Origin: a virus | Lineage: Duplodnaviria > Caudoviricetes | IMG/VR virus record: IMGVR_UViG_3300020432_000008 | Span: 1 to 63,993 of that record | DNA: 63,993 bases | Strand: one strand, 5' to 3' | Part shown: positions 483-50,681 of the stretch, piece by piece | Numbering within the stretch: the first letter of the stretch is position 1 | Layout of the letters: every line of letters starts with the position of its first letter | The notes under the pieces: generated by a model | The model's database searches: none | Told to the model about the DNA's origin: nothing | What the model saw: only the letters and a program-made list of their open reading frames with translations | Translations under genes and position numbers: made by a program

Positions 483-568
483 GTGTGTTACCTGTGTTTG
501 TTTATATTATTATTATACACACAAAGACCCCACATATGTGAGGCCATGTGACAGTTGTTAAAGTGTCA

Positions 569-2226: not shown

Positions 2227-2531
2227 AAGATTGAGGCGGTAGATTACATTTAATTCTAACAGATATTGCACTAAATGTCAACAATAGCACGCATATTTCC
2301 TTCTTATGTTTATATTTAGTGGGGAAACTTTCCACGCTTATGTTATACTTAAGCACTACATTATTTCTAAAAAAAATTTCGTTCGCCTCAAAGTGACTAG
2401 GATAATGTAAGACTAATAAAGACGAATTACACGATAAAATTGTTAATTAGTGGACTTATAACAATAAGCGCGAAGCATTGATGTACGCCACTAAGTAACA
2501 ATTAAGCACGATTAATCACTCATTAAAACTG

Positions 2532-2795
2532 TCAACTAAAGTTCAAAGATTTAATCTCATAGTCATAATTAGATTCACTAACTTTATCACTATTATTAAC
2601 TATTGTTTGGTCTAATACGTTGACTAGACTTTCATCTATTAACATTAATTCTGTAATGTAGTCATCTTCAAAAGCACCTCCGCTCTCCTCAAATAGAGCA
2701 CGCTTTTCTTCAATAGCAAGTTCTCTCAAAATTTGCAACTGGTAAAATGTTAGGTTAACGTTAACACTAACGTCACTAAGTTTTGAAGTGTCCAT
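2532..2795 (-). CDS. small acidic hypothetical protein
   Basis: GGAGG RBS in upstream gene end. Confidence 0.75.
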   Translation of the reverse strand: MDTSKLSDVSVNVNLTFYQLQILRELAIEEKRALFEESGGAFEDDYITELMLIDESLVNVLDQTIVNNSDKVSESNYDYEIKSLNFS

Positions 2796-6180: not shown

Positions 6181-6375
6181 TTAGTAATTGCCCTCCTTGA
6201 TATACTGTAATGTTAAGACTTCCATTGCTTTTTGTAGATCGCCTTTAAAGTTCCCATCATTATAACTGTGAATTGTTGCCCAAGCATTCTCCATAGCGTT
6301 ATTGATTTGATAACCCTTCAATACAACACCAATTTCGTGCATATTGTATGTTTGGTTTGGTTTAACTTTTTTCAT
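6181..6375 (-). CDS. hypothetical protein
   Basis: AACAAACACAGAGG leader/RBS. Confidence 0.75.
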   Translation of the reverse strand: MKKVKPNQTYNMHEIGVVLKGYQINNAMENAWATIHSYNDGNFKGDLQKAMEVLTLQYIKEGNY

Positions 6376-6611
6376 AAAACCTCTGTGTTTGTTATACTAT
6401 TATTATAGGGCAGTGAAATCGTAATTCAACTACCCATGTGCCACTTTATTAACTGTCACACACACTCTTGACATTCACGCCACGATTGGTTAGCATATCC
6501 TCTAACTTCAATAGAATAGTGACTACTTCTTTTTCATCAATATCACTATCAAAGTTTTCAATTTCCTCTACATAATTGTCAACTACATTAATAAGTGTTC
6601 TTAGTTCGCTA

Positions 6612-6866: not shown

Positions 6867-7054
6867 TAATCTACCTCTATACTAAATGGTTCGGGGAACT
6901 CTTGTAATTTAAGTGTAGCAAACTCTCTTATAAAGGTATAAACCTTGAGTCCACTAAGTTTTTTCTCGTCACATATATGTGATACTGTATCTTCCAATAC
7001 CTCTAATACATCAAAGGCATCATCACACAATTTTTTCATATCTTTTTTGTCCAT
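6866..7054 (-). CDS. hypothetical protein
   Basis: GGAGG RBS, coupled. Confidence 0.75.
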   Translation of the reverse strand: MDKKDMKKLCDDAFDVLEVLEDTVSHICDEKKLSGLKVYTFIREFATLKLQEFPEPFSIEVD

Positions 7055-7272
7055 TAACCTAACCTCCTGTATAAGTGATTAATCTTGTCATCAATAGAGT
7101 TAATTCTATCCATAACTGGAATACCACCAATCAAATCTTCTTCCGCCGCTTCATCATTAGCGTAACACTCATAATCCTCAAGAGAAGCACTAATTGTCTC
7201 CCATTCTGCATCAGTAAAGAATGCCTTGATAGTTACAAGTTGTTCATAACTGAAATCTCTTGTTAGAGTCAT
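7054..7272 (-). CDS. small acidic hypothetical protein
   Basis: first gene after cassette at 7281-7361. Confidence 0.75.
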   Translation of the reverse strand: MTLTRDFSYEQLVTIKAFFTDAEWETISASLEDYECYANDEAAEEDLIGGIPVMDRINSIDDKINHLYRRLG

Positions 7273-7365
7273 TTTAAAAACCTCTGTGTTTGTTATACTA
7301 CTATTATAGTAGCGTGAAATTGTAATTCAACTGGTTATGTGCCAGTATTTGAACTGGCACACTAC

Positions 7366-7602: not shown

Positions 7603-7850
7603 TACTCTGCCTCCTCTGAAAAATAGTTGTATAACTCATTAATATGAGTCTGCAAATCTAAAAGGCAATCGCCAATCGAAATACTTGAACCTTCCCAATC
7701 TTTTGGAATATCCATTAATGTTTTTGGTTCACTCTCAAATTGACTTGCATCATACTCTTCAATAATGTCATCATTAATTGAATGACCTTGTATTGTTTCA
7801 ACAACGTCATTAATATTGAAAAGCATATTTGCCATGTAATCTCTGTTCAT
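7602..7850 (-). CDS. small acidic hypothetical protein
   Basis: GGAGG RBS, coupled. Confidence 0.75.
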   Translation of the reverse strand: MNRDYMANMLFNINDVVETIQGHSINDDIIEEYDASQFESEPKTLMDIPKDWEGSSISIGDCLLDLQTHINELYNYFSEEAE

Positions 7851-8167
7851 TACTCTGCCTCCTGATCTAGTGATGTACCATCAAGTGCCCATAGACTACC
7901 ACCATCAAAATCTGTGGAATATCCGTAGTTTCTGACTAAGAAGTCTCTGACTCTCTCTCTATCAATAGAATCGCCATCGCCCCAAGTGAATCTCTCATTA
8001 TTGAGAGTAGTAATAGCGTTTAGATAGTCATAGGTAGCACTAATAATATCTACTTTAGTAGCACCCATAGGATATAGTGCATCAGGAGCACCATAGAATG
8101 AATAGACATATTCTGTGAACTGTGTTAACATATCATTCAGTTCAGTAGATGATTGACCTGAGTTCAT
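7850..8167 (-). CDS. hypothetical protein
   Basis: first gene after cassette at 8173-8253. Confidence 0.8.
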   Translation of the reverse strand: MNSGQSSTELNDMLTQFTEYVYSFYGAPDALYPMGATKVDIISATYDYLNAITTLNNERFTWGDGDSIDRERVRDFLVRNYGYSTDFDGGSLWALDGTSLDQEAE

Positions 8168-8237
8168 AAAAACCTCTGTGTTTGTTATATTATTATTATA
8201 GGGCAGTGAAACTGAATTTCAACTGCCCTTGTGCAAC

Positions 8238-12031: not shown

Positions 12032-12099
12032 GAATGTGAGAGAGGTTCGACTTAAAGGGCATTTTCCTCTGGGGTCGCCCACCCATGCCTCTCACATTC
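12032..12099 (-). ncRNA. putative structured ncRNA
   Basis: begins right after cassette promoter 12102-12160; perfect 11-bp closing stem, inner GC-rich stems, no RBS/ORF. Confidence 0.5.
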
Positions 12100-14969: not shown

Positions 14970-15392
14970 TTATCTGATGTAGAGATAACCGCCTGCCCAA
15001 TCGCAATGAGCATACATATACTCACGTTGGTTTTGATCTCTCATATCAAATCTAACGTGTTTAGCAGGAGCACGCCATGAAGCAGGTTTATAAACTTCTC
15101 CTGTTGTTTTGTCAACAAAAGCGTGTACGCCTGCACTCTCATACTTACCATTTCTGAAATCGTTTTGTATGATTTTGTGATACTTCTTACCTGATGTGAT
15201 AGTGAATTTGATGCACTCTTCATCATTCTCAATTTTTCTTGCCCTCTCCTGTAGATACTTGTCACTGCCATTCTGACTATCCATAACATATCTCAACGAA
15301 TAGTTCCTGTACTGTGCTTCTAGGCATCTACATAGTTCCTGTGTCCACTTAAGAACTTCTGTCTTTTGAATTGCGTTTGTCAATTTAGGCAT
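14970..15392 (-). CDS. conserved phage hypothetical protein
   Basis: KYHKI...VHAFVDKTTGEVYKPASWRAPAKHVR motif recalled from cyanophage early genes. Confidence 0.8.
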   Translation of the reverse strand: MPKLTNAIQKTEVLKWTQELCRCLEAQYRNYSLRYVMDSQNGSDKYLQERARKIENDEECIKFTITSGKKYHKIIQNDFRNGKYESAGVHAFVDKTTGEVYKPASWRAPAKHVRFDMRDQNQREYMYAHCDWAGGYLYIR

Positions 15393-15410
15393 GATAATTA
15401 ATGTTTGTTG

Positions 15411-15457
15411 TAAAAAAGGAAAGGGAAGGTAACAAACACAAAACCTTCCCTCTCATA
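15411..15457 (-). ncRNA. putative hairpin sRNA / attenuator with loop antisense to the early-gene leader
   Basis: TTGCAC-N17-TATTAT promoter just upstream; GAGAGGGAAGGT-TTTGTGTTTGTT-ACCTTCCCTTTC followed by CTTTTT. Confidence 0.65.
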
Positions 15458-15460
15458 TTC

Positions 15461-15664
15461 TTATAATACTGTATGGTCAGTATCAGTGCAATCGGTAGTG
15501 TGCCACTTCTTCAACTGTCCACTACTGAATCTGTAAAAAAGCATACCCAAAGCGAAACCGATACCAAACTTTGATGCCGTACTCACACTTCTGCCCATTT
15601 GATTCAGAGCAGGCCTCATACCTTGATTGTGCATTGAGTATGGTTTTGAACCTAATCTATCCAT
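15461..15664 (-). CDS. possible small protein with hydrophobic segment
   Basis: MDRLGSK...FGIGFALGMLF; 3' third overlaps the promoter cassette. Confidence 0.35.
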   Translation of the reverse strand: MDRLGSKPYSMHNQGMRPALNQMGRSVSTASKFGIGFALGMLFYRFSSGQLKKWHTTDCTDTDHTVL

Positions 15665-23977: not shown

Positions 23978-26900
23978 TTTTCAGTTCCTCAATCTCATCT
24001 TTAAGTTCTTTGACAGCCTCTATGAGTAGAGGTACAAGTTTGTCGTATTGTACTGTCATGTATCCTTTACCTACAGCAGCTGGTTTAACAGCCTCAGGTA
24101 ATACTTCTTTAACCTGTTGTGCAGATACACCAGCATACCTTGTTTCAGTATCAAATCCTAGTTCACCAGCAGTTTCATTGAATGAATATGTAAATCCACT
24201 TAACTTACATACCTTAGCAATAGCACCATCAATCTGTTCTAGACTTGTTTTCAACCTCATGTCAGATACGAAGGCAGTAACATCTCCAGTGGTATTGAAG
24301 TTTCCAGTTTGATTGATGTCAGCAGTAACTTCAACTGAATTGTTATCTGCATCTAATTTTAATGCTCCTGACGTAGTATCAATCTTGTTATCTTTGATTC
24401 TTACATTGTCAGTTCTGAACACACCATTACATACAAGATCATTGTTAAATGTACCTGTGCTAGCGTTACAATCGAAGTCTGATGAGGCAGTAATTGAATT
24501 TACAGTCAGTCTAGTTCCATTGAATGTAAGATTAGCTGACGATGTGGTGCTGTTGTTTGAATTATTGTAAGGAACTCTACCACTAGGGATTTGAATGTTA
24601 GAGGCAAGTGTGGAAGTTGCAGCATTACCAGCAAAATTAGTTCCAGTTGCGGCAGTAAATGTACCTGTAACCTCAAGGTTGTTGATTTCGTTATTACCAC
24701 CAATAGTCGCATTATTACCTGTGATCGCAGTAGGGAAAGCACCTGTACCGCCTTGGAATAATGTCGCAGTGATAACATTGACCTTTGTACTACCATTGGA
24801 GTCTCTGGCAACAATAGAAGAACCGCTTGTCCAGTTGGTATCTTTAGTTGTCTTACCATCAAGTAAGTCAGCGTTCAAGTTTACACACTTGGCACTAGAT
24901 GATGTCTTGATAGGTGGAACAGTTGTTGCAGTTGATTCAAACTGGAATGATTTAATCTGTCCAGCAGAACCAGCATCAATAGTCATGTTACCACCATTAC
25001 CAGCACTCAATGCTGTAATGATACCAACGTTTGCACGAATGGTTGGGGCAGTAAGTCCATTACTGCCTTGTGGCATGTTGATTCTCTCTATCGTTGCAGC
25101 AAAACCAACAATACAAGTGTAGATACCAGCGTTAGCAAAGATAGTTAATTGTTCTGCCTCATTACCTGGCGATGCAGGGTACTTACTACCAATCTGTCTG
25201 GTAGTCATAGCATCAGAGTCTACATCATTAGAGAAGTATGCGTCAGGACCTATGAGGTCATCAGTAAATGTGATGTCTGTAGACGTAAGTTGAGCAATGT
25301 TTGCAAGTTCAATATCTGCGTTACCACCACCAGCAGAAGGAACTGTTAGATTAGTAATGGTTGCGTTTGTGACTGTCTCATTGGCAATCGTAGCACTGTT
25401 TGTTACTTGTAAGTTAGTAACAATACCTGTAAATACTCTATTTTCATTGACATATTGTGTTGTAACATGAGATAGAGTTGTAATACCAATATCAGCATAC
25501 AGTCCGTTAGTTACAACACCGACTGTAACGTGTAGGTCAGTAACGAAACCAACCTTTGCGTATAACTGATTTGATGCCTCAAGAATACCAAATGAACCGT
25601 TGGAAGCATTAACAAATGTACCATTGAATGTACCACCTGTACTTTCAAGGTTTCCAACTTTAAGTGTACCAGTGAATGTACTTACACCAGCGAATGTGGA
25701 CTTCATAGGTCCTTCAACCACTATCTGTGATGCTGGTTTGAATGTTACATAAGTACCAACAGTCTCTATGTTATACAGTCTGGAAGTACCATTCTCATGT
25801 ACCTGTGTGTAGTAACCATGATCTTCCCAAGGGATTCCATCATAGGATATACCACCTGTAGTGTTGTATCCCCAGAAGTTAGCGTTCTGCTTAATTACTA
25901 GAGTATCATAAGAGACACCTTTGAATGTCTGGTTAGCCTGAAATGTAACCATACCAGATACAAATAGGTCTTTTATCTTGGCAACACCATTGACCTCAAG
26001 AGCATCTTGGAAAGCAAAGTTTTGTGTGGATTGTCCAATACCAATCTGATCAAACTTAGCGAACTGTCTGTCTCTCTCCTGTGATATGACACCAAATCTT
26101 CTCCATTCACCCTCTGCAAAAATATGTCCTAAGTATCCACCAGGCGCAGGCACACCAACAAATGATATGTCACCTGATCTAGCAGCACTTGTAGGAGTAG
26201 AGATACCAACTGTTATGATCTTACCCTGTGGGGCATCTCCTCTAAGTGAGAAGTTTACAGTTTCAATACCTTCTTCAGATGTGTTTGTTAGTTTCTCAGT
26301 GAAGTTGACAGGACCATAGAACTGTGATGTTCTATTGTTGTTGTCTCCACCCTCAACTGTAAGTGACTCTCTAATTAATACCTCATCAAATACACCTGAT
26401 GCTCTCTTGATTGTTTCTGCCTCAGCATCGTCACCAACATAGGTGAACACTGGAGCTTCGAGAACTTCCTCTTCACCAGTGATAGATGATAACTTCTTAT
26501 ATCCTGTAAAGAAGTCTCCTGAGTCGTTCATACCAGTATAAACAACTGTACCACCATCTAGCTCTTTCTTCTGTGCAGTCAGTGATTCAGTATCAGATAG
26601 AACTCTGTCCTGTTTCTGTGGTAATGATGTGGAGTAGTTTCCTGATCCATAACCAAGATATTCAAACGTATGACCAGAGGCACGAAGGATCGAAGGTCTG
26701 CGTAATTCCATAGGAAGAACCTTGATCTTCTTAATCGTAGTTCCTGTGATTGCAGGCGATGCCAGAGTACCAAACTGACCTCTAAGAATGTTATTAATAT
26801 TATCAGAGGTGAATCTTACAACTTCACCATTGATTATACAATAGTCTCCTCTTCTAAATCCATCATTAGATGTAAGAGTGATATTTGTATCTGTAGATGT

Positions 26901-31922: not shown

Positions 31923-31941
31923 GAAAGGGGGCAGAGCCCCC
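31923..31941 (-). terminator. terminal hairpin of tmRNA
   Basis: GGGGGCTCTGCCCCC-TTTC. Confidence 0.6.
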
Positions 31942-32215
31942 TATGGTCACTTGGGTAACAAGGAGTAACCAATCCCCGATTGCCCCTTAGGCAGTGACGA
32001 GTTCGTCAGTGCGGGCAAATTCTCTCGTAAGAATACGAGAGAACGCTACGATGTTGTTCGCAGCAGTGTCAGATGATTTTGCATCTGTGGTTTGCTCTCC
32101 GAGCAGGTTTTCAGTCATGCTCCTTGTACCCTGTCGAAACCATTGCACCCCCTAGCTTATGGAGGTGAGGGGAGTCGAACCCCTGTCCAAAATATAGGTT
32201 GCACCACCTACATGT
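31923..32215 (-). ncRNA. ssrA: two-piece (circularly permuted) tmRNA
   Basis: acceptor piece first: GGAC-AGGGG-TTCGACT-CCCCT-CACCTCC-A ending 32160; 7-nt spacer; coding piece starts GGGGGTG-CAATGGTTTCGAC at 32152; G3:U70 pair; tag frame 32061-31987 ANNIVAFSRILTREFARTDELVTA*; outer ends approximate. Confidence 0.92.
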
Positions 32216-32237
32216 CTTTTTGAGTCATACATCAGGA

Positions 32238-37753: not shown

Positions 37754-40700
37754 TTAGTATCCACCTCCGTAGCCTCCGCCACCCGATCCGCCAGACCCGC
37801 CGCCACCAGAAGGAGGAGTAGGAGGAGGAGGAGTGCTTGGTGGAGTTGGTGGAGGAGTTTGTTGTTGAGGTTGTTGTGGAGCTGGTGTAGTTGTCTCCGT
37901 TGTTGTTGGAGTTGTTGGAGTACTTGTTGTAGTTGAACTAGTATCACTTGTGTTAGTTTCACTTGTGACAGTGGAGTCGGAAACATCGGCTTGTGGGGTC
38001 TGAGTATTGGTTGTTCTAGGTTGAGTATAGGTTACTGGCGCTGGTTGTCCTAGACTTTCTTCCTTCGTGTTATATATTACAGCATGAGGCTCATTTATAT
38101 GAACTTTTCCTACCATTCTAACACCTGTTGATGGGTGAACGTGGAAATCACCATAGTAGGGATTACCATTGACCCAACCAACTTGTGTCTTACCTAAACC
38201 ATATACACAATCTATAACTTTAATGTAGAGATTTCCACCAGCTCTAGCAGCATCTGGTGTGGGTATTCCTGTCCTACCGCCACCGAATCCACCATCAACA
38301 TTTGGAGCAGTTCCACTATCAGAAACAAAGTCAGGGCTATAGGATATAACAGGAAGTAACTCTGCTCCTATTCCAGATCTGGTATTTATTGTGACTTCTG
38401 GTATGACTTTATGTTTATCTTGGCAATTTATATTATTGATTCCAGCGATAGATCCAGCTGGAGTTAAAACTAAATCAAATGTACATGCACCAACTTGTCC
38501 ATTGTCTCCTGACGTATATCCAATCCCAGGCCTGTATGGAATCAAAGTGGTAACAATACCAACTGCTTCGCTTCCTATCCCAGAAACTCCCTTAGTGGTA
38601 AAGTTATAAGTATCTGTTCTTCCTATACCAGCGAACTGATTATCTGCCATGTCTAAGAATGATCCTTCCGACATTGTAACAAAATAATCAGTGCCGCCTC
38701 TTAGATCGTTCTTGGGATCTATTCTGATAATTCTATCTGATAAAAATTCTATTCTATTACTCTTTACATTAATCCTTTCATGAACAACATTGGTTAGTGA
38801 TTCTGTTATGACTACCTCTCCCTTTCCTTTAACGATTGGTTCATTAAAAGTAACCGAAAGAGATACAGATGTTTCTACACCAACCGCATCATCAGCTGGA
38901 GTTGTGAATGTTATAAATGGATTTTCTTCATCAGTATCCTCTGTAACAGGATATTTTGGAGGAATTACATTCGTTGATGTACAATATCCAAATCCAGGCG
39001 ATATCATATACACATCTACAACTTTACCTTCATCATCTATGATCGCTTTCGCTCTTGCTCCACCACCATGTCTAGTCTTATCAATAATAGAGATTGTTGG
39101 TACATCAGTATAATTTCTGCCTGGTTCTATAATCTCTAGTGTTAATATACTTCCGTCTACTGAGGAAACGATAGGAATTAAAACTGCGGTCTTTGTTCCA
39201 TTACCAAGAACTTCTACTTTTGGAGGGATACACTCACTCCAAGTGAAGCCTGGTGGAACTGCCAAAGCCAAATCATCTTGATTCTGAGGATTATTAGTTT
39301 TATTATTACAATCAAAGAACTCTACAGCTCCTCCACCCATCATACTAAGAAGAGAGAATCTTGCTCTTGCATCGTAAACTCCCGAACCAGATTCATTGTC
39401 ACCTGAGAAACCAGATGTATCAGCAAACTGGTCTAATTTCTGGAATATTTCTACATTGTCTAGTACACTTTCCATGTCAGGGGATGGTAGTTTAGATTTT
39501 CCTCCAGATTGTGTCCAATCATCATACTCCTTACATGTTAATCCAGTACATGATAGGAATGATAATAACATATCAACATAACTGCTTATTTTACCAAACA
39601 AACCAGCAATCTTGCCTAATGACCCAAGTAACCAATCTAATCCTGATAGTATTGGTGCGAGCAAGTTATTAATTGTATCATATACACTTGCCAAAAGGTT
39701 TGCCACTGCCTGTTCAATAGCACAAACTGTTGGATTTATCGCTTTACCAATCATATCGATCAACATATCTTTTATCAGGTCGAACAGATCGTTGAAACCA
39801 GTATCAAACAAACAGAAAATTATGTCCAGAATCTTTTGTACAGCCTTGGAGATGAATGGCTTTTGTGGTTCTGGAATGATTAGTGCTTGTAGATTTCTGA
39901 ATTGTTTTGATATGAAATTCATGACCTTTTCTCTAATAAGGTTCATGATCTTCTTCATTGCAGCACTTATCAACCTAGCTACCTTATTAGTTAATTTCCT
40001 AATATCTTTTATTGTATTCTCTGCTACATCAATCCATTCTCCAGCAAACTCAGTCAAAGAATTGACTGTGGTTAGAAAACTACCTATCTCATGTGCTATA
40101 TCTCCTACAGCATCATCTTTACAACCATTGTTGAGTTTATGTGGGCCTGTTTGTACATTACTGAAGGTCTGATCAATTTTTCTTTCTTTACTTAATCCTT
40201 CTCCACCACCCTCTAATTCGCCCTTTTTCTCGCCGTTTGTTTCCTCACCAACTTTATTTTCAGCATTTAATTTTGTTTGACTCTCATCACTAGATTTATT
40301 TCCAATTTCTTGATTCTTACTTGCAGGCATTGTTGTCGGCCCACCTATTTTTCTACCACTAACAACCCCAAAAGCATTTGCCTCTGTACCAGAAATACTT
40401 TCAACATCTGAATTAGTAGGACCATATCCAGACTTATTGTTTTGTCTTGCTAATGCACCAAATACAACTGGGTTTTGAGCTTCCTCACCATCCATAAAGA
40501 AACCAAAAACAGTTTCTCCTCCAACCATTCTTGAACTCTCGCCATAGCAACCCTGTCCAGACCCAGAAGTTGCATCCACCAGAACATGAGCCCAAGGCAA
40601 ATCGCTCTCAGGAAGCACCTCCTCGTCAAAGGGATGGTATCCTATTATTCTAACTTTACATCTGTATGCCCATCCAGCATCCGTATCGGTGGCTTCGTTA

Positions 40701-49020: not shown

Positions 49021-50681
49021 CAGATCCTAGATTTCCAAATAACGTTTCCGTATACGGAGTAGAAGTAGAAACAGATACTGTCATTAAGCAAACAGTAGGT
49101 GGGAAGGTGCAAGAATATAGAACTTTCTACAAAGACGGAAATACTACAATCCGTCCTGTTAACGATAAAGGTGAAGTACTACTTCCTCCAGACGATGAAC
49201 CAATATACACAAACGGAGTCTGGGATCAAAGTAAAATAACGGAACCAAATGTCAATAGTAGGGGTAGAAAAACAAATGTAACCATAGCTGGATTGCAATC
49301 AGAGACAGGAGTATTCCCACCATCTACAGCTGAAAGCACAATATATACGGGCGTTATAAACCAACAACTCAAAGATTCAACAAAAAATCACGCCAACGCA
49401 GTTGGTGATGCTGTACCATCATATACAACAATATCAGAATATTCAACCGAAATCACAAGAGAAATAAATCGACTTGAAGCAGAGTTGGCTCAATCAACAA
49501 ATAATAAAGACAGAAACGCACTAACTAAGAAGATTAGGAGTCTACAAGAAAAATTAGATTCAGAAAATGATTTGTTGTTACCAGACGGAGCTACTGGTGT
49601 TCTTGCGAGGGGACAAGAAAATTACGATAGTGAAGAAGATATAATGTTTTATCAAACTGTGAAGTATCCAATGGATATGTCTGATCAACAGGATCGTTTT
49701 TCTATAACATGTTACTCATATCAAGCTCCTTACGCTACTGCAACTGAGAAAAGTAATATAGGATCGGCATACGGAGTTCAAAGATCATCACCATACAGAA
49801 AGAAGTTAGGTGCTGGACTCTTGTTACCCATGCCTAATAATATGGTAGATGGTAATGCAAGAAAATGGGAAGAAGACAATATAAACAACCAAGCATTAGA
49901 TGCTGTAAGAGCATCGATGAGTAACGGTATGTCGCAAATCATAGCGGGTAAACTTGGTCTCGGTGGATTCCAAGCTTTCCTTAAGAATACTATGGGAACT
50001 CTTAGAAGTGCAACTCAGCAGTCTGGTAGGCAAGAATTATTTGCAAACGAGATTAGTCAATTAGTTGGCGATATGGGATATGATGTAAGTGCAGACACTA
50101 TATTAAGTAGAACTGCTGGTGTAATTGCCAATGCAAATACAGAACTACTATTCGCTGGTGTTTCTTTACGATCATTTGAGTTTAACTGGTTGATGAGTCC
50201 AAGAGATCTAAGAGAGGCAGCACAGGTAAGAATGATAATTCGTGCTTTGAAACAATGGTCTGCTCCTAGAAAGTTAAAAAAACTAGTGTCTGGAAAAGAT
50301 GGTGCGGATGCAAGAGGAACTGGACAGGCTGGTGGTCCTAGTTACTTCTTAGGAACTCCAAACATATTCAGACTAAGATATCTTACCAATGGCAACAAAG
50401 ATATTCTTGGTGTCAATAAATTCAAACCATGTGCTTTAACTGATATAAACCTTAACTACACTCCAGAGGGAATGTGGATGGCGTATCAGGATGGTCAACC
50501 TGTCGCTGTACAGATGTCACTTAAATTTAATGAATTAGAACCTATATACAACACAGATTATAGTGATAAGATAACGCCAGGTAGATCATTTGATAAGAGT
50601 AATCCTGATTCAACAGGAGATTTAATGCCTATAAGTCTTATAAGACAAGACACACCTTACACAGCTGACGTAGGATACTAA
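49017..50681 (+). CDS. gp48: baseplate tail tube cap
   Basis: KYP...LPMP...ELLFAGVSLRSFEF...KFKPCALTDINLNYTP...FNELEP. Confidence 0.88.
   Translation: MTDPRFPNNVSVYGVEVETDTVIKQTVGGKVQEYRTFYKDGNTTIRPVNDKGEVLLPPDDEPIYTNGVWDQSKITEPNVNSRGRKTNVTIAGLQSETGVFPPSTAESTIYTGVINQQLKDSTKNHANAVGDAVPSYTTISEYSTEITREINRLEAELAQSTNNKDRNALTKKIRSLQEKLDSENDLLLPDGATGVLARGQENYDSEEDIMFYQTVKYPMDMSDQQDRFSITCYSYQAPYATATEKSNIGSAYGVQRSSPYRKKLGAGLLLPMPNNMVDGNARKWEEDNINNQALDAVRASMSNGMSQIIAGKLGLGGFQAFLKNTMGTLRSATQQSGRQELFANEISQLVGDMGYDVSADTILSRTAGVIANANTELLFAGVSLRSFEFNWLMSPRDLREAAQVRMIIRALKQWSAPRKLKKLVSGKDGADARGTGQAGGPSYFLGTPNIFRLRYLTNGNKDILGVNKFKPCALTDINLNYTPEGMWMAYQDGQPVAVQMSLKFNELEPIYNTDYSDKITPGRSFDKSNPDSTGDLMPISLIRQDTPYTADVGY

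Follow-up and report, generated by a model that had tools for sequence, protein, structure and literature searches.

A conserved early-promoter hairpin in S-SSM7-like cyanophages with a loop complementary to early gene leaders

Introduction

The c4 RNA of phages P1 and P7 and the CI RNA of phage P4 are antisense repressors directed at leader sites within the operon that encodes them: bases exposed in a loop pair with short leader sequences that occur repeatedly, which blocks expression. These RNAs belong to temperate phages or plasmids, are cut from a longer transcript and serve immunity control at one or two sites. Global action on early mRNAs is known from T4, where the endoribonuclease RegB and the translational repressor RegA act via a short shared sequence at the ribosome-binding region. 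To our knowledge, the control of early genes in marine T4-like cyanophages is poorly understood, with several of the T4 regulators lacking. A further feature of T4-type phages is the PeSL cassette, which places a repeated stem-loop, a sigma-70-like early promoter, a Shine-Dalgarno sequence and a start codon before small early genes (PMC4122927; PMC2839356); the passages of the PeSL description covered here make no mention of cyanophages or of a leader-complementary hairpin (PMC4122927). With respect to RNAs encoded by cyanophages, the CfrI antisense RNA of S-PM2 and the wcaG, manA, glnA and abiF motifs are known (PMC12197685, PMC9964418), and the same RNAs are the only ones listed for cyanophages in the covered parts of a 2025 review of phage small RNAs (PMC12197685).

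Here we analyse a hairpin on a contig of 63,993 bases (one virus record, referred to as the window throughout) from an S-SSM7-like (Lipsvirus) T4-type cyanophage. Its nearest named relatives are the Synechococcus phages S-SSM7 and S-SSM6a (genus Lipsvirus, T4-like cyanomyoviruses), with an identity of ~73% over the 1.9 kb around the hairpin; 25 phage records were matched, of which 3 span the hairpin stretch. The original prediction was that a small RNA, transcribed from an early-type promoter, could silence the whole early regulon through pairing of its loop with the leaders shared by the early genes.

Compared with the c4 and CI RNAs, the predicted transcript would likewise be small, encoded by a phage close upstream of a target and exposing a loop, but it belongs to a lytic phage, has at least 13 potential sites and exhibits no sequence or Rfam similarity to these RNAs that we could find. 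Were it to act in trans, the outcome would be the same as for RegB and RegA, which differ in being proteins. As in Rho-independent terminators and promoter-proximal attenuators, a G-C stem followed by a U-tract is located between a stop codon and the next gene; the differences here are an invariant 12-nt loop, a stem starting at the predicted +1 of a conserved promoter and no apparent anti-terminator pairing. The palindrome-plus-promoter cassettes of the window fit the published PeSL description as far as it is covered here (PMC4122927). However, the PeSL stem-loop lies upstream of the promoter, whilst in the present case a second hairpin is found downstream of the start site, with a sequence that can pair with the leader of the cassettes themselves. 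The cassette at 15523-15463, whose palindrome is degenerate, falls within the PeSL definition; the downstream hairpin falls outside it. The known cyanophage RNAs are also non-coding and encoded by T4-like cyanophages, but in the covered parts of the sources none is an early-promoter hairpin complementary to early leaders, and none matched at the hairpin site. No prior description of such an element was found in the literature on cyanophage early promoters, non-coding and antisense RNA, PeSL, Syn9 promoter motifs and the S-SSM7 transcriptome.

Results and Discussion

The hairpin and its promoter

All genes around the hairpin are encoded on the minus strand. Upstream lies a 67-aa ORF with a hydrophobic core (15461-15664, minus strand), whose S-SSM7 counterpart is SSSM7_040; downstream follows a gene for a DUF7717 protein of 140 aa (14970-15392, minus strand, ATG at 15392), assigned through PF24835 (E 2.6e-37) and through the S-SSM7 annotation and also termed 'T4-like GC 68'. 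As read from the minus strand, the hairpin consists of a 5' arm GAGAGGGAAGGT (RNA GAGAGGGAAGGU; 15454-15443), a 12-nt loop TTTGTGTTTGTT (RNA UUUGUGUUUGUU; 15442-15431) and a 3' arm ACCTTCCCTTTC (RNA ACCUUCCCUUUC; 15430-15419), with the anti-leader core UGUGUUUGUUA spanning 15440-15430. The stem (15419-15454) is supported by RNA folding and by covariation and comprises 12 pairs, i.e. 11 plus a closing U-A, and it is followed by the intrinsic-terminator-like tail C-U6-A (15411-15418; T6 at 15417-15412, then AC). Sequence and fold thus confirm the 12-bp hairpin with U-tail that had been predicted to follow an early-type cassette, on the minus strand at 15454-15411. The folding energy is -18.9 kcal/mol (z -4.63), a stability reached by 0 of 200 shuffled sequences, and distinct variants of the hairpin range from -14.7 to -19.1 kcal/mol. 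Whilst the stable G-C-containing stem and the U-tract directly after it are those of an intrinsic terminator, the loop of 12 nt is unusually long for such structures; this is the reason why the hairpin is absent from a consensus terminator scan of the window, which was limited to loops of 3-8 nt. A search with Rfam 15 gave no gathering-score match at the hairpin site in the window, and matches within 15380-15540 were at chance level only (E >= 0.07, far below gathering scores). Under gathering and E-value thresholds, Rfam also gave no family for the structured modules of relatives or for the 12.1-kb RNA described below.

The hairpin is preceded by an early-type sigma-70-like promoter (15463-15491, minus strand), composed of TTGCAC (15491-15486), a 17-nt spacer and TATTAT (15468-15463). 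This arrangement had been recognised in the original prediction; it aligns with ~16 other cassettes, whose motifs it matches position for position. The cassette palindrome, proposed at 15499-15522, is present upstream of the -35 at 15500-15523 (minus strand), but as a degenerate copy, AGTGGACAGTTGAAGAAGTGGCAC, in which the right half AAGTGGCAC is canonical and the left half imperfect. The predicted transcription start is around A15456, ~7 nt downstream of the -10. The 45 nt of hairpin and U-tract occupy precisely the interval from 'TATTAT + 8 nt' to the leader box AACAAACA, whereas the other cassettes run straight into the box. The element's own box (15402-15409, minus strand) lies between the stem and the ATG of the DUF7717 gene, 9 nt from each, and is a possible pairing partner in cis. 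No promoter of this gene was found downstream of the hairpin. The cassette at 15523-15463 sits within the 3' end of the 67-aa ORF, with the TAA overlapping the -10 of the internal promoter and the stop codon 6 nt before the hairpin; the hairpin is therefore predicted to double as the terminator of the 67-aa ORF and as the first stretch transcribed from the internal promoter.

Conservation of the hairpin among relatives

S-SSM7 is 73% identical overall in the 1.9 kb compared, but 100% across AGGGAAGGTTTTGTGTTTGTTACCTTCC. Its small ORF is strongly diverged and ends 45 nt earlier, and still the palindrome, -35, -10 and hairpin align. An exact 26-mer of the element is present on 32 IMG/VR contigs. 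When IMG/VR was scanned using the downstream protein as anchor, 79 loci were obtained, at least 42 of which carry the hairpin, all with the same loop; together with the window, this set comprises 24 distinct hairpin sequences. The scan anchored on the upstream palindrome was blind to the loop and gave 73 loci, 47 of them with a TTGYR-N-TAWTATA promoter: the loop was found in 45 of these 47, and the remaining two are accounted for by an unrelated cassette and by a contig that breaks off after 80 nt. The conservation of the loop in relatives, on which the original prediction depended, is hence borne out, its conserved form being U3-5[G/A]UGUUUGUUA.

Across 17 distinct hairpins, 96.1% of the stem cells are paired and three stem pairs have changed on both sides (A-U 12 / G-C 5; A-U 12 / G-U 3 / G-C 2; A-U 9 / G-C 8), a score that none of 500 shuffles equalled; all of these compensatory changes are transitions among related sequences. 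The loop in the same 17 hairpins shows one variable position (G/A) and, in one sequence, an extra U. TTGC and TAWTAT of the cassette are kept, the promoter spacer and tail vary freely, and the degenerate palindrome is nearly invariant, regardless of whether it is coding (as in the window) or contains a stop codon (as in S-SSM7). Among 26 distinct flank variants, a run of at least 4 T starts no more than 3 nt after the stem in 22 and the tail is degenerate in 4; AACAAACA follows 9-13 nt after the hairpin in all 26. As a control, we used an ordinary terminator located 0.8 kb downstream, at 14625-14608, which was found in 10 of 14 relatives examined and whose 3-4-nt loop occurs in four versions (tgcg, tgca, tgc and acac). 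The comparison indicates that the hairpin loop is under much stronger constraint than the loop of this ordinary terminator.

An upstream ORF or leader peptide was considered as a reason for the conservation and rejected. The frame from the loop NTG to the ATG of the gene is 0 in 13, 1 in 1 and 2 in 12 of the 26 variants, and from the 5' ATG the conserved bases are read in one frame in the window but in another in S-SSM7; as no reading frame is kept across the hairpin, even between close relatives, the element is non-coding. As a separate observation on this region, the annotated start of S-SSM7 gene 041 (DUF7717) is located 78 nt upstream of the onset of homology, and the extension covers the hairpin (S-SSM7 38060-38137; 2590-2667 in our extract L001): the start of this gene has probably been called 78 nt too far upstream.

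Turning to the distribution of hairpin and leader box, every phage bearing the hairpin has the same leader box. More distant contigs have the leader box without the hairpin, or too few cassettes; no uniform leader box was found in Syn9 and P-SSM4. The A-variant of the loop is confined to 5 short contigs that carry no other cassette. Closer relatives exhibit an extra structured module between the promoter and the anti-leader hairpin. In distant relatives, the same promoter leads either to a plain leader or to structured RNAs of quite other kinds, which measure 50-170 nt and adjoin the start of the DUF7717 gene; the AACAAACA leader is absent where other 5' RNAs precede this gene.

Early cassettes and complementarity to the loop

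Cassettes were identified from the context of every AACAAACA together with a scan for TGGCAC plus a -10. The regular cassette, found between 0.5 and 12 kb, consists of a palindrome GTGCCAnTT...AAnTGGCAC, a GTTGAAT-like motif, 16-17 nt, TATAAT, 8 nt, AACAAACA, 9-20 nt and the ATG. There are ~16 cassettes in the window, and in at least 13 of these the box occupies a fixed place 8 nt after the -10; given a start ~7 nt after the -10, the early mRNAs would begin with AUAACAAACA. AACAAACA matches the window 31 times against 5.5 expected, with 29 of the 31 matches on the minus strand. Separately, in some cassettes (window ~526-553, minus strand; also L111, L113 and L245-L247) the -35/spacer region that separates the half palindrome from the -10 is replaced by a terminator hairpin that is rich in G+C and has a T-run: these are true composite terminator-promoters.

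The hairpin loop contains the exact reverse complement of UAACAAACACA, which is the leader sequence, followed by GAGG, of the early genes at 6181-6375 (leader 6384-6394), 7054-7272 (leader 7285-7295) and 7850-8167 (leader 8177-8187), all on the minus strand. The exact 11-nt complementarity claimed for ~6384, ~7285 and ~8176 is therefore found at each of these sites. At the DNA level, the 11-mer TAACAAACACA is exact in the three leaders, at 26280-26290 (minus strand, not a cassette) and at 15430-15440 on the plus strand, which is the hairpin loop; if up to 1 mismatch is allowed, the window contains 15 matches where 3.2 would be expected, a number not attained in any of 100 shuffles. Matches of the shorter core, listed near 490, 1214, 3368, 4017, 4621, 5646, 9077, 10140 and 10927, are all present. 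The possibility that the loop is a remnant of an inverted cassette was also considered, and rejected as the match stops at 11 nt.

To assess the strength of pairing, duplex energies of the 14-nt loop region were computed along the gene strand in 12,793 segments of 30 nt (mean -4.8, sd 2.2, 1st percentile -10.8 kcal/mol). The best 3 of the 12,793 sites are the three UAACAAACACAGAGG leaders, each with -15.4 kcal/mol and 14 consecutive pairs: the match extends over the full 14 nt of the loop and includes two G:U pairs to UAACAAACACAGAG that reach into AGAGG, which reproduces the extended match described beforehand. Five more cassette leaders lie between -11.2 and -13.4 kcal/mol, giving eight cassette leaders below the 1st percentile of -10.8 kcal/mol. 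Five of the 13 tabulated AACAAACA-type cassette leaders pair weakly (-8.6 to -9.7 kcal/mol), and the value for the element's own downstream box is -8.9 kcal/mol, with 8-9 pairs. The sole variable base of the loop (G/A) faces a leader position that is C or U. The complementarity of the loop to early leaders is far beyond chance.

The S-SSM7 genome (232,878 bases) contains UGUUUGUUA on the gene-sense strand twice only, in both cases within 12-nt hairpin loops, and the complement of UGUUUGUUA occurs 13 times, always at 27.8-51.8 kb, which is the early region. The second anti-leader hairpin of S-SSM7, at 49.8 kb, has the form GUGA-GUUGUUUGUUAA-UCAC nested in a longer stem; it is unrelated to the first, is not adjacent to a AACAAACA box and is also present in three other variant sequences. 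The presence of the same 9-mer in the loop of a second hairpin supports the idea of selection for display of the loop. This second hairpin is not found in the window, where the homologous place (2361-2533) holds another inner module; one relative has no stem-loop there.

Possible functions of the hairpin

There is good support for the structure of the hairpin, for the promoter in front of it, for a non-coding sequence and for a loop under selection. From the sequence we infer where transcription would start and end, that a small RNA would be made and that it would affect its targets. The explanation that we favour, a loop that functions through pairing with the early leader box and does so chiefly in trans, on leaders of the UAACAAACACAGAGG class, has in our view somewhat less than an even chance. 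The element would then be a conserved non-coding mini transcription unit of S-SSM7-like cyanophages, in which the early-type promoter starts directly into a purine/pyrimidine hairpin and U-tract and so would yield an RNA of ~45 nt; if polymerase reads through, the hairpin would become the 5' end of the DUF7717 mRNA. The 12-14-nt loop would be kept because it pairs with the (U)AACAAACA box, with which the early mRNAs begin. Pairing would be best with the UAACAAACACAGAGG leaders, where it would run into the Shine-Dalgarno region and lower translation or stability of the targets in trans; the weaker copy of the box 9 nt downstream would be able to pair in cis. If true, a tiny RNA directed against a common early leader would offer a lytic phage a novel means of timing its programme; it would also be a rare case of a phage small RNA with many targets in the genome that encodes it. 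A bolder version, in which a ~45-nt hairpin RNA from an early promoter would bind the 5' box common to the early mRNAs of the phage and so serve as an Hfq-independent early-gene timer or shut-off, comparable as an RNA to RegB/RegA of T4 and accompanied by a second loop of this kind in S-SSM7-type phages, we judge to be unlikely. On a modest reading, the element marks early transcription starts, corrects at least one gene start of the S-SSM7 reference and indicates a site at which cyanophages keep several unrelated structured RNAs, including one widespread motif absent from Rfam.

Several observations argue against action in trans. The U-tract is degenerate in 4 of the 26 variants, so that termination is not always kept. 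The finding that distant relatives have other structured RNAs, or nothing, before the DUF7717 gene fits a role tied to the 5' UTR of that gene. Furthermore, the RNA would come from a single gene, whose promoter does not surpass those of its targets, and would have to contend with more than 13 co-expressed mRNAs; in the window, another module takes the place of the second anti-leader hairpin. A multi-target small RNA as originally proposed gains from the conserved promoter, the compensatory stem changes, the constraint on a non-coding loop, a complementarity beyond chance and the second S-SSM7 loop, but its extension to the whole early regulon sits poorly with the weak pairing of five of the 13 leaders and with the ratio of targets to gene. 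A 'regulon silencer' acting in trans would nonetheless be plausible. Assembled contigs from four metatranscriptome libraries, which hold no strand, start or end information, include two that bridge the hairpin (X16, 15260-15487; X17, 15266-15571); if derived from RNA, these represent read-through, with DNA carry-over being possible. The gaps or breaks of contigs X15 and X18 at the hairpin carry no weight as evidence, as these are assembled contigs.

Much of this could also be accounted for by an ordinary leaky intrinsic terminator combined with a 5' stabilising hairpin, which would end the transcript of the 67-aa ORF and attenuate or cap the DUF7717 mRNA; the loop would be kept for another reason, such as a protein or RNase site, and its complementarity to the leaders would be functionless. 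The position of the hairpin 6 nt after the ORF stop and its U6 tail suit this explanation, as does the lack of another promoter for the DUF7717 gene, which would therefore be expressed by read-through, in keeping with the two bridging contigs from RNA libraries. Promoter-then-hairpin units that lack the anti-leader loop in P-SSM4 and Syn9, and the other structured RNAs of relatives that start at +1 of the same promoter, point in the same direction. What such a terminator leaves to be explained is the loop itself: it is unusually long and has remained invariant whilst stem, tail and promoter spacer have changed, the loop of the neighbouring terminator is short and variable, a match of 11-14 nt to the most over-represented leader motif of the genome is very unlikely to arise by chance, and the same 9-mer recurs in the second hairpin loop of S-SSM7. 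We view a terminator with a functionless complementarity as somewhat unlikely.

The complementarity could instead be used in cis only: within read-through transcripts, the loop would pair with the AACAAACA box 9 nt downstream to form a putative H-type pseudoknot just upstream of the DUF7717 start, and would set translation of, or read-through into, that one gene. The box follows at 9-13 nt in all 26 distinct variants and is absent where other 5' RNAs precede the DUF7717 gene; in the four variants that lack a good U-tract the hairpin would stay attached to the leader, and the c4 RNA of P1/P7, encoded just upstream of its target in the same transcript, offers a precedent. Against this, a box downstream of the hairpin is to be expected anyway since every cassette has one, and the element's own leader is among the weakest partners (-8.9 kcal/mol, compared to -15.4 kcal/mol for three others). 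Pairing in cis also does not explain the invariant UUUUG part of the loop or the second S-SSM7 hairpin, which has no AACAAACA box as a neighbour, and as the sole function we deem it doubtful. Still further from the evidence is a role of the sequence as DNA, in which a phage or host protein would bind AACAAACA at +1 as a double-stranded site, the loop being an inverted extra copy, or, as a variant, a decoy transcribed from the plus strand. The constant 8-nt distance from the -10 to the box, seen in at least 13 cassettes, would suit a promoter-proximal DNA element, and in one other phage contig a sense-strand TGTTTGTT does belong to an inverted cassette; however, the copy discussed here lies exactly in the loop of a covarying stem, and beyond 11 nt its flanks are unlike an inverted cassette. 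The plus strand has no promoter or terminator around the loop, no T-run follows the hairpin in that direction and the neighbouring genes are all on the minus strand, and the decoy transcript, which the original prediction had raised as an alternative, was rejected on these grounds. A DNA-level role as a whole appears very improbable. Pairing of the loop with early leaders, mainly in trans, remains the explanation that we prefer, at the tentative level given above, with the leaky terminator or 5' hairpin and the pairing in cis as serious competitors.

Other structured RNAs

Further structured RNAs were observed at this site and elsewhere in the early regions. Two sets of IMG/VR relatives (L047/L051 and L040/L055) have modules of ~50 nt and ~100 nt, each closed by a G-run/C-run stem, between promoter and hairpin. 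In P-SSM4 (L119, 23558-23612), TTGACA-17-TATAAT is followed directly by GGGGGUACUCACACACCCCC and U7 within a 250-nt gap, and Syn9 (L118, ~25720-25790) exhibits a similar promoter-then-hairpin unit; promoter-proximal hairpins may be general in the early regions of T4-like cyanophages.

At 12.1 kb of the window (12034-12093, minus strand; promoter ~12143-12100), an early promoter runs at +1 into a structured RNA of the form GUGAGAGG-CAUGGGU-[hairpin]-UUUAAGUCGAA-CCUCUCUCAC. The motif consists of helices P1 and P2, both of which covary, arranged around conserved GGCAWGGGU and UUUAARUCGAACC. It was sought in 36 IMG/VR contigs (32 distinct flanks), and its 5' half was recognised in 35 sequences including the window. 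Usually, the motif starts right after an early -10 as the 5' UTR of varied genes, and in some relatives it replaces the hairpin before the DUF7717 gene; with no match in Rfam, it is a candidate for a new cyanophage RNA motif.

The stretch of the window at 2361-2533 (minus strand) corresponds to 49,787-49,960 of S-SSM7 (NC_015287) and is conserved, non-coding, ~170 nt in length and equipped with a terminator and with flanking direct repeats CGTCTTTAATTGTTAC and CGTCTTTATTAGTNTTAC; S-SSM7 annotates a 42-aa ORF, SSSM7_080, over this type of stretch. It holds an exchangeable stem-loop, which is the anti-leader loop in S-SSM7-type sequences and a different module in the window, with one contig having none. 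A ~38-nt module (GGCGTACATCAAYG.TTCGC.CTTATTGTTRTAAGTCC) is found in three unrelated RNA contexts (window ~2440-2480, minus strand; L001 2296-2336; L085), namely the 2.4-kb element of the window, the 5' UTR of S-SSM7 gene 040 and a position within a large structured RNA of an IMG/VR relative; judged by this distribution, it appears to behave like a small mobile RNA module. Finally, the phage contig carries a gene for a cyanobacterial-type (permuted) tmRNA at 31928-32232 of the window (minus strand; RF01851, 122 bits, E 2e-32).
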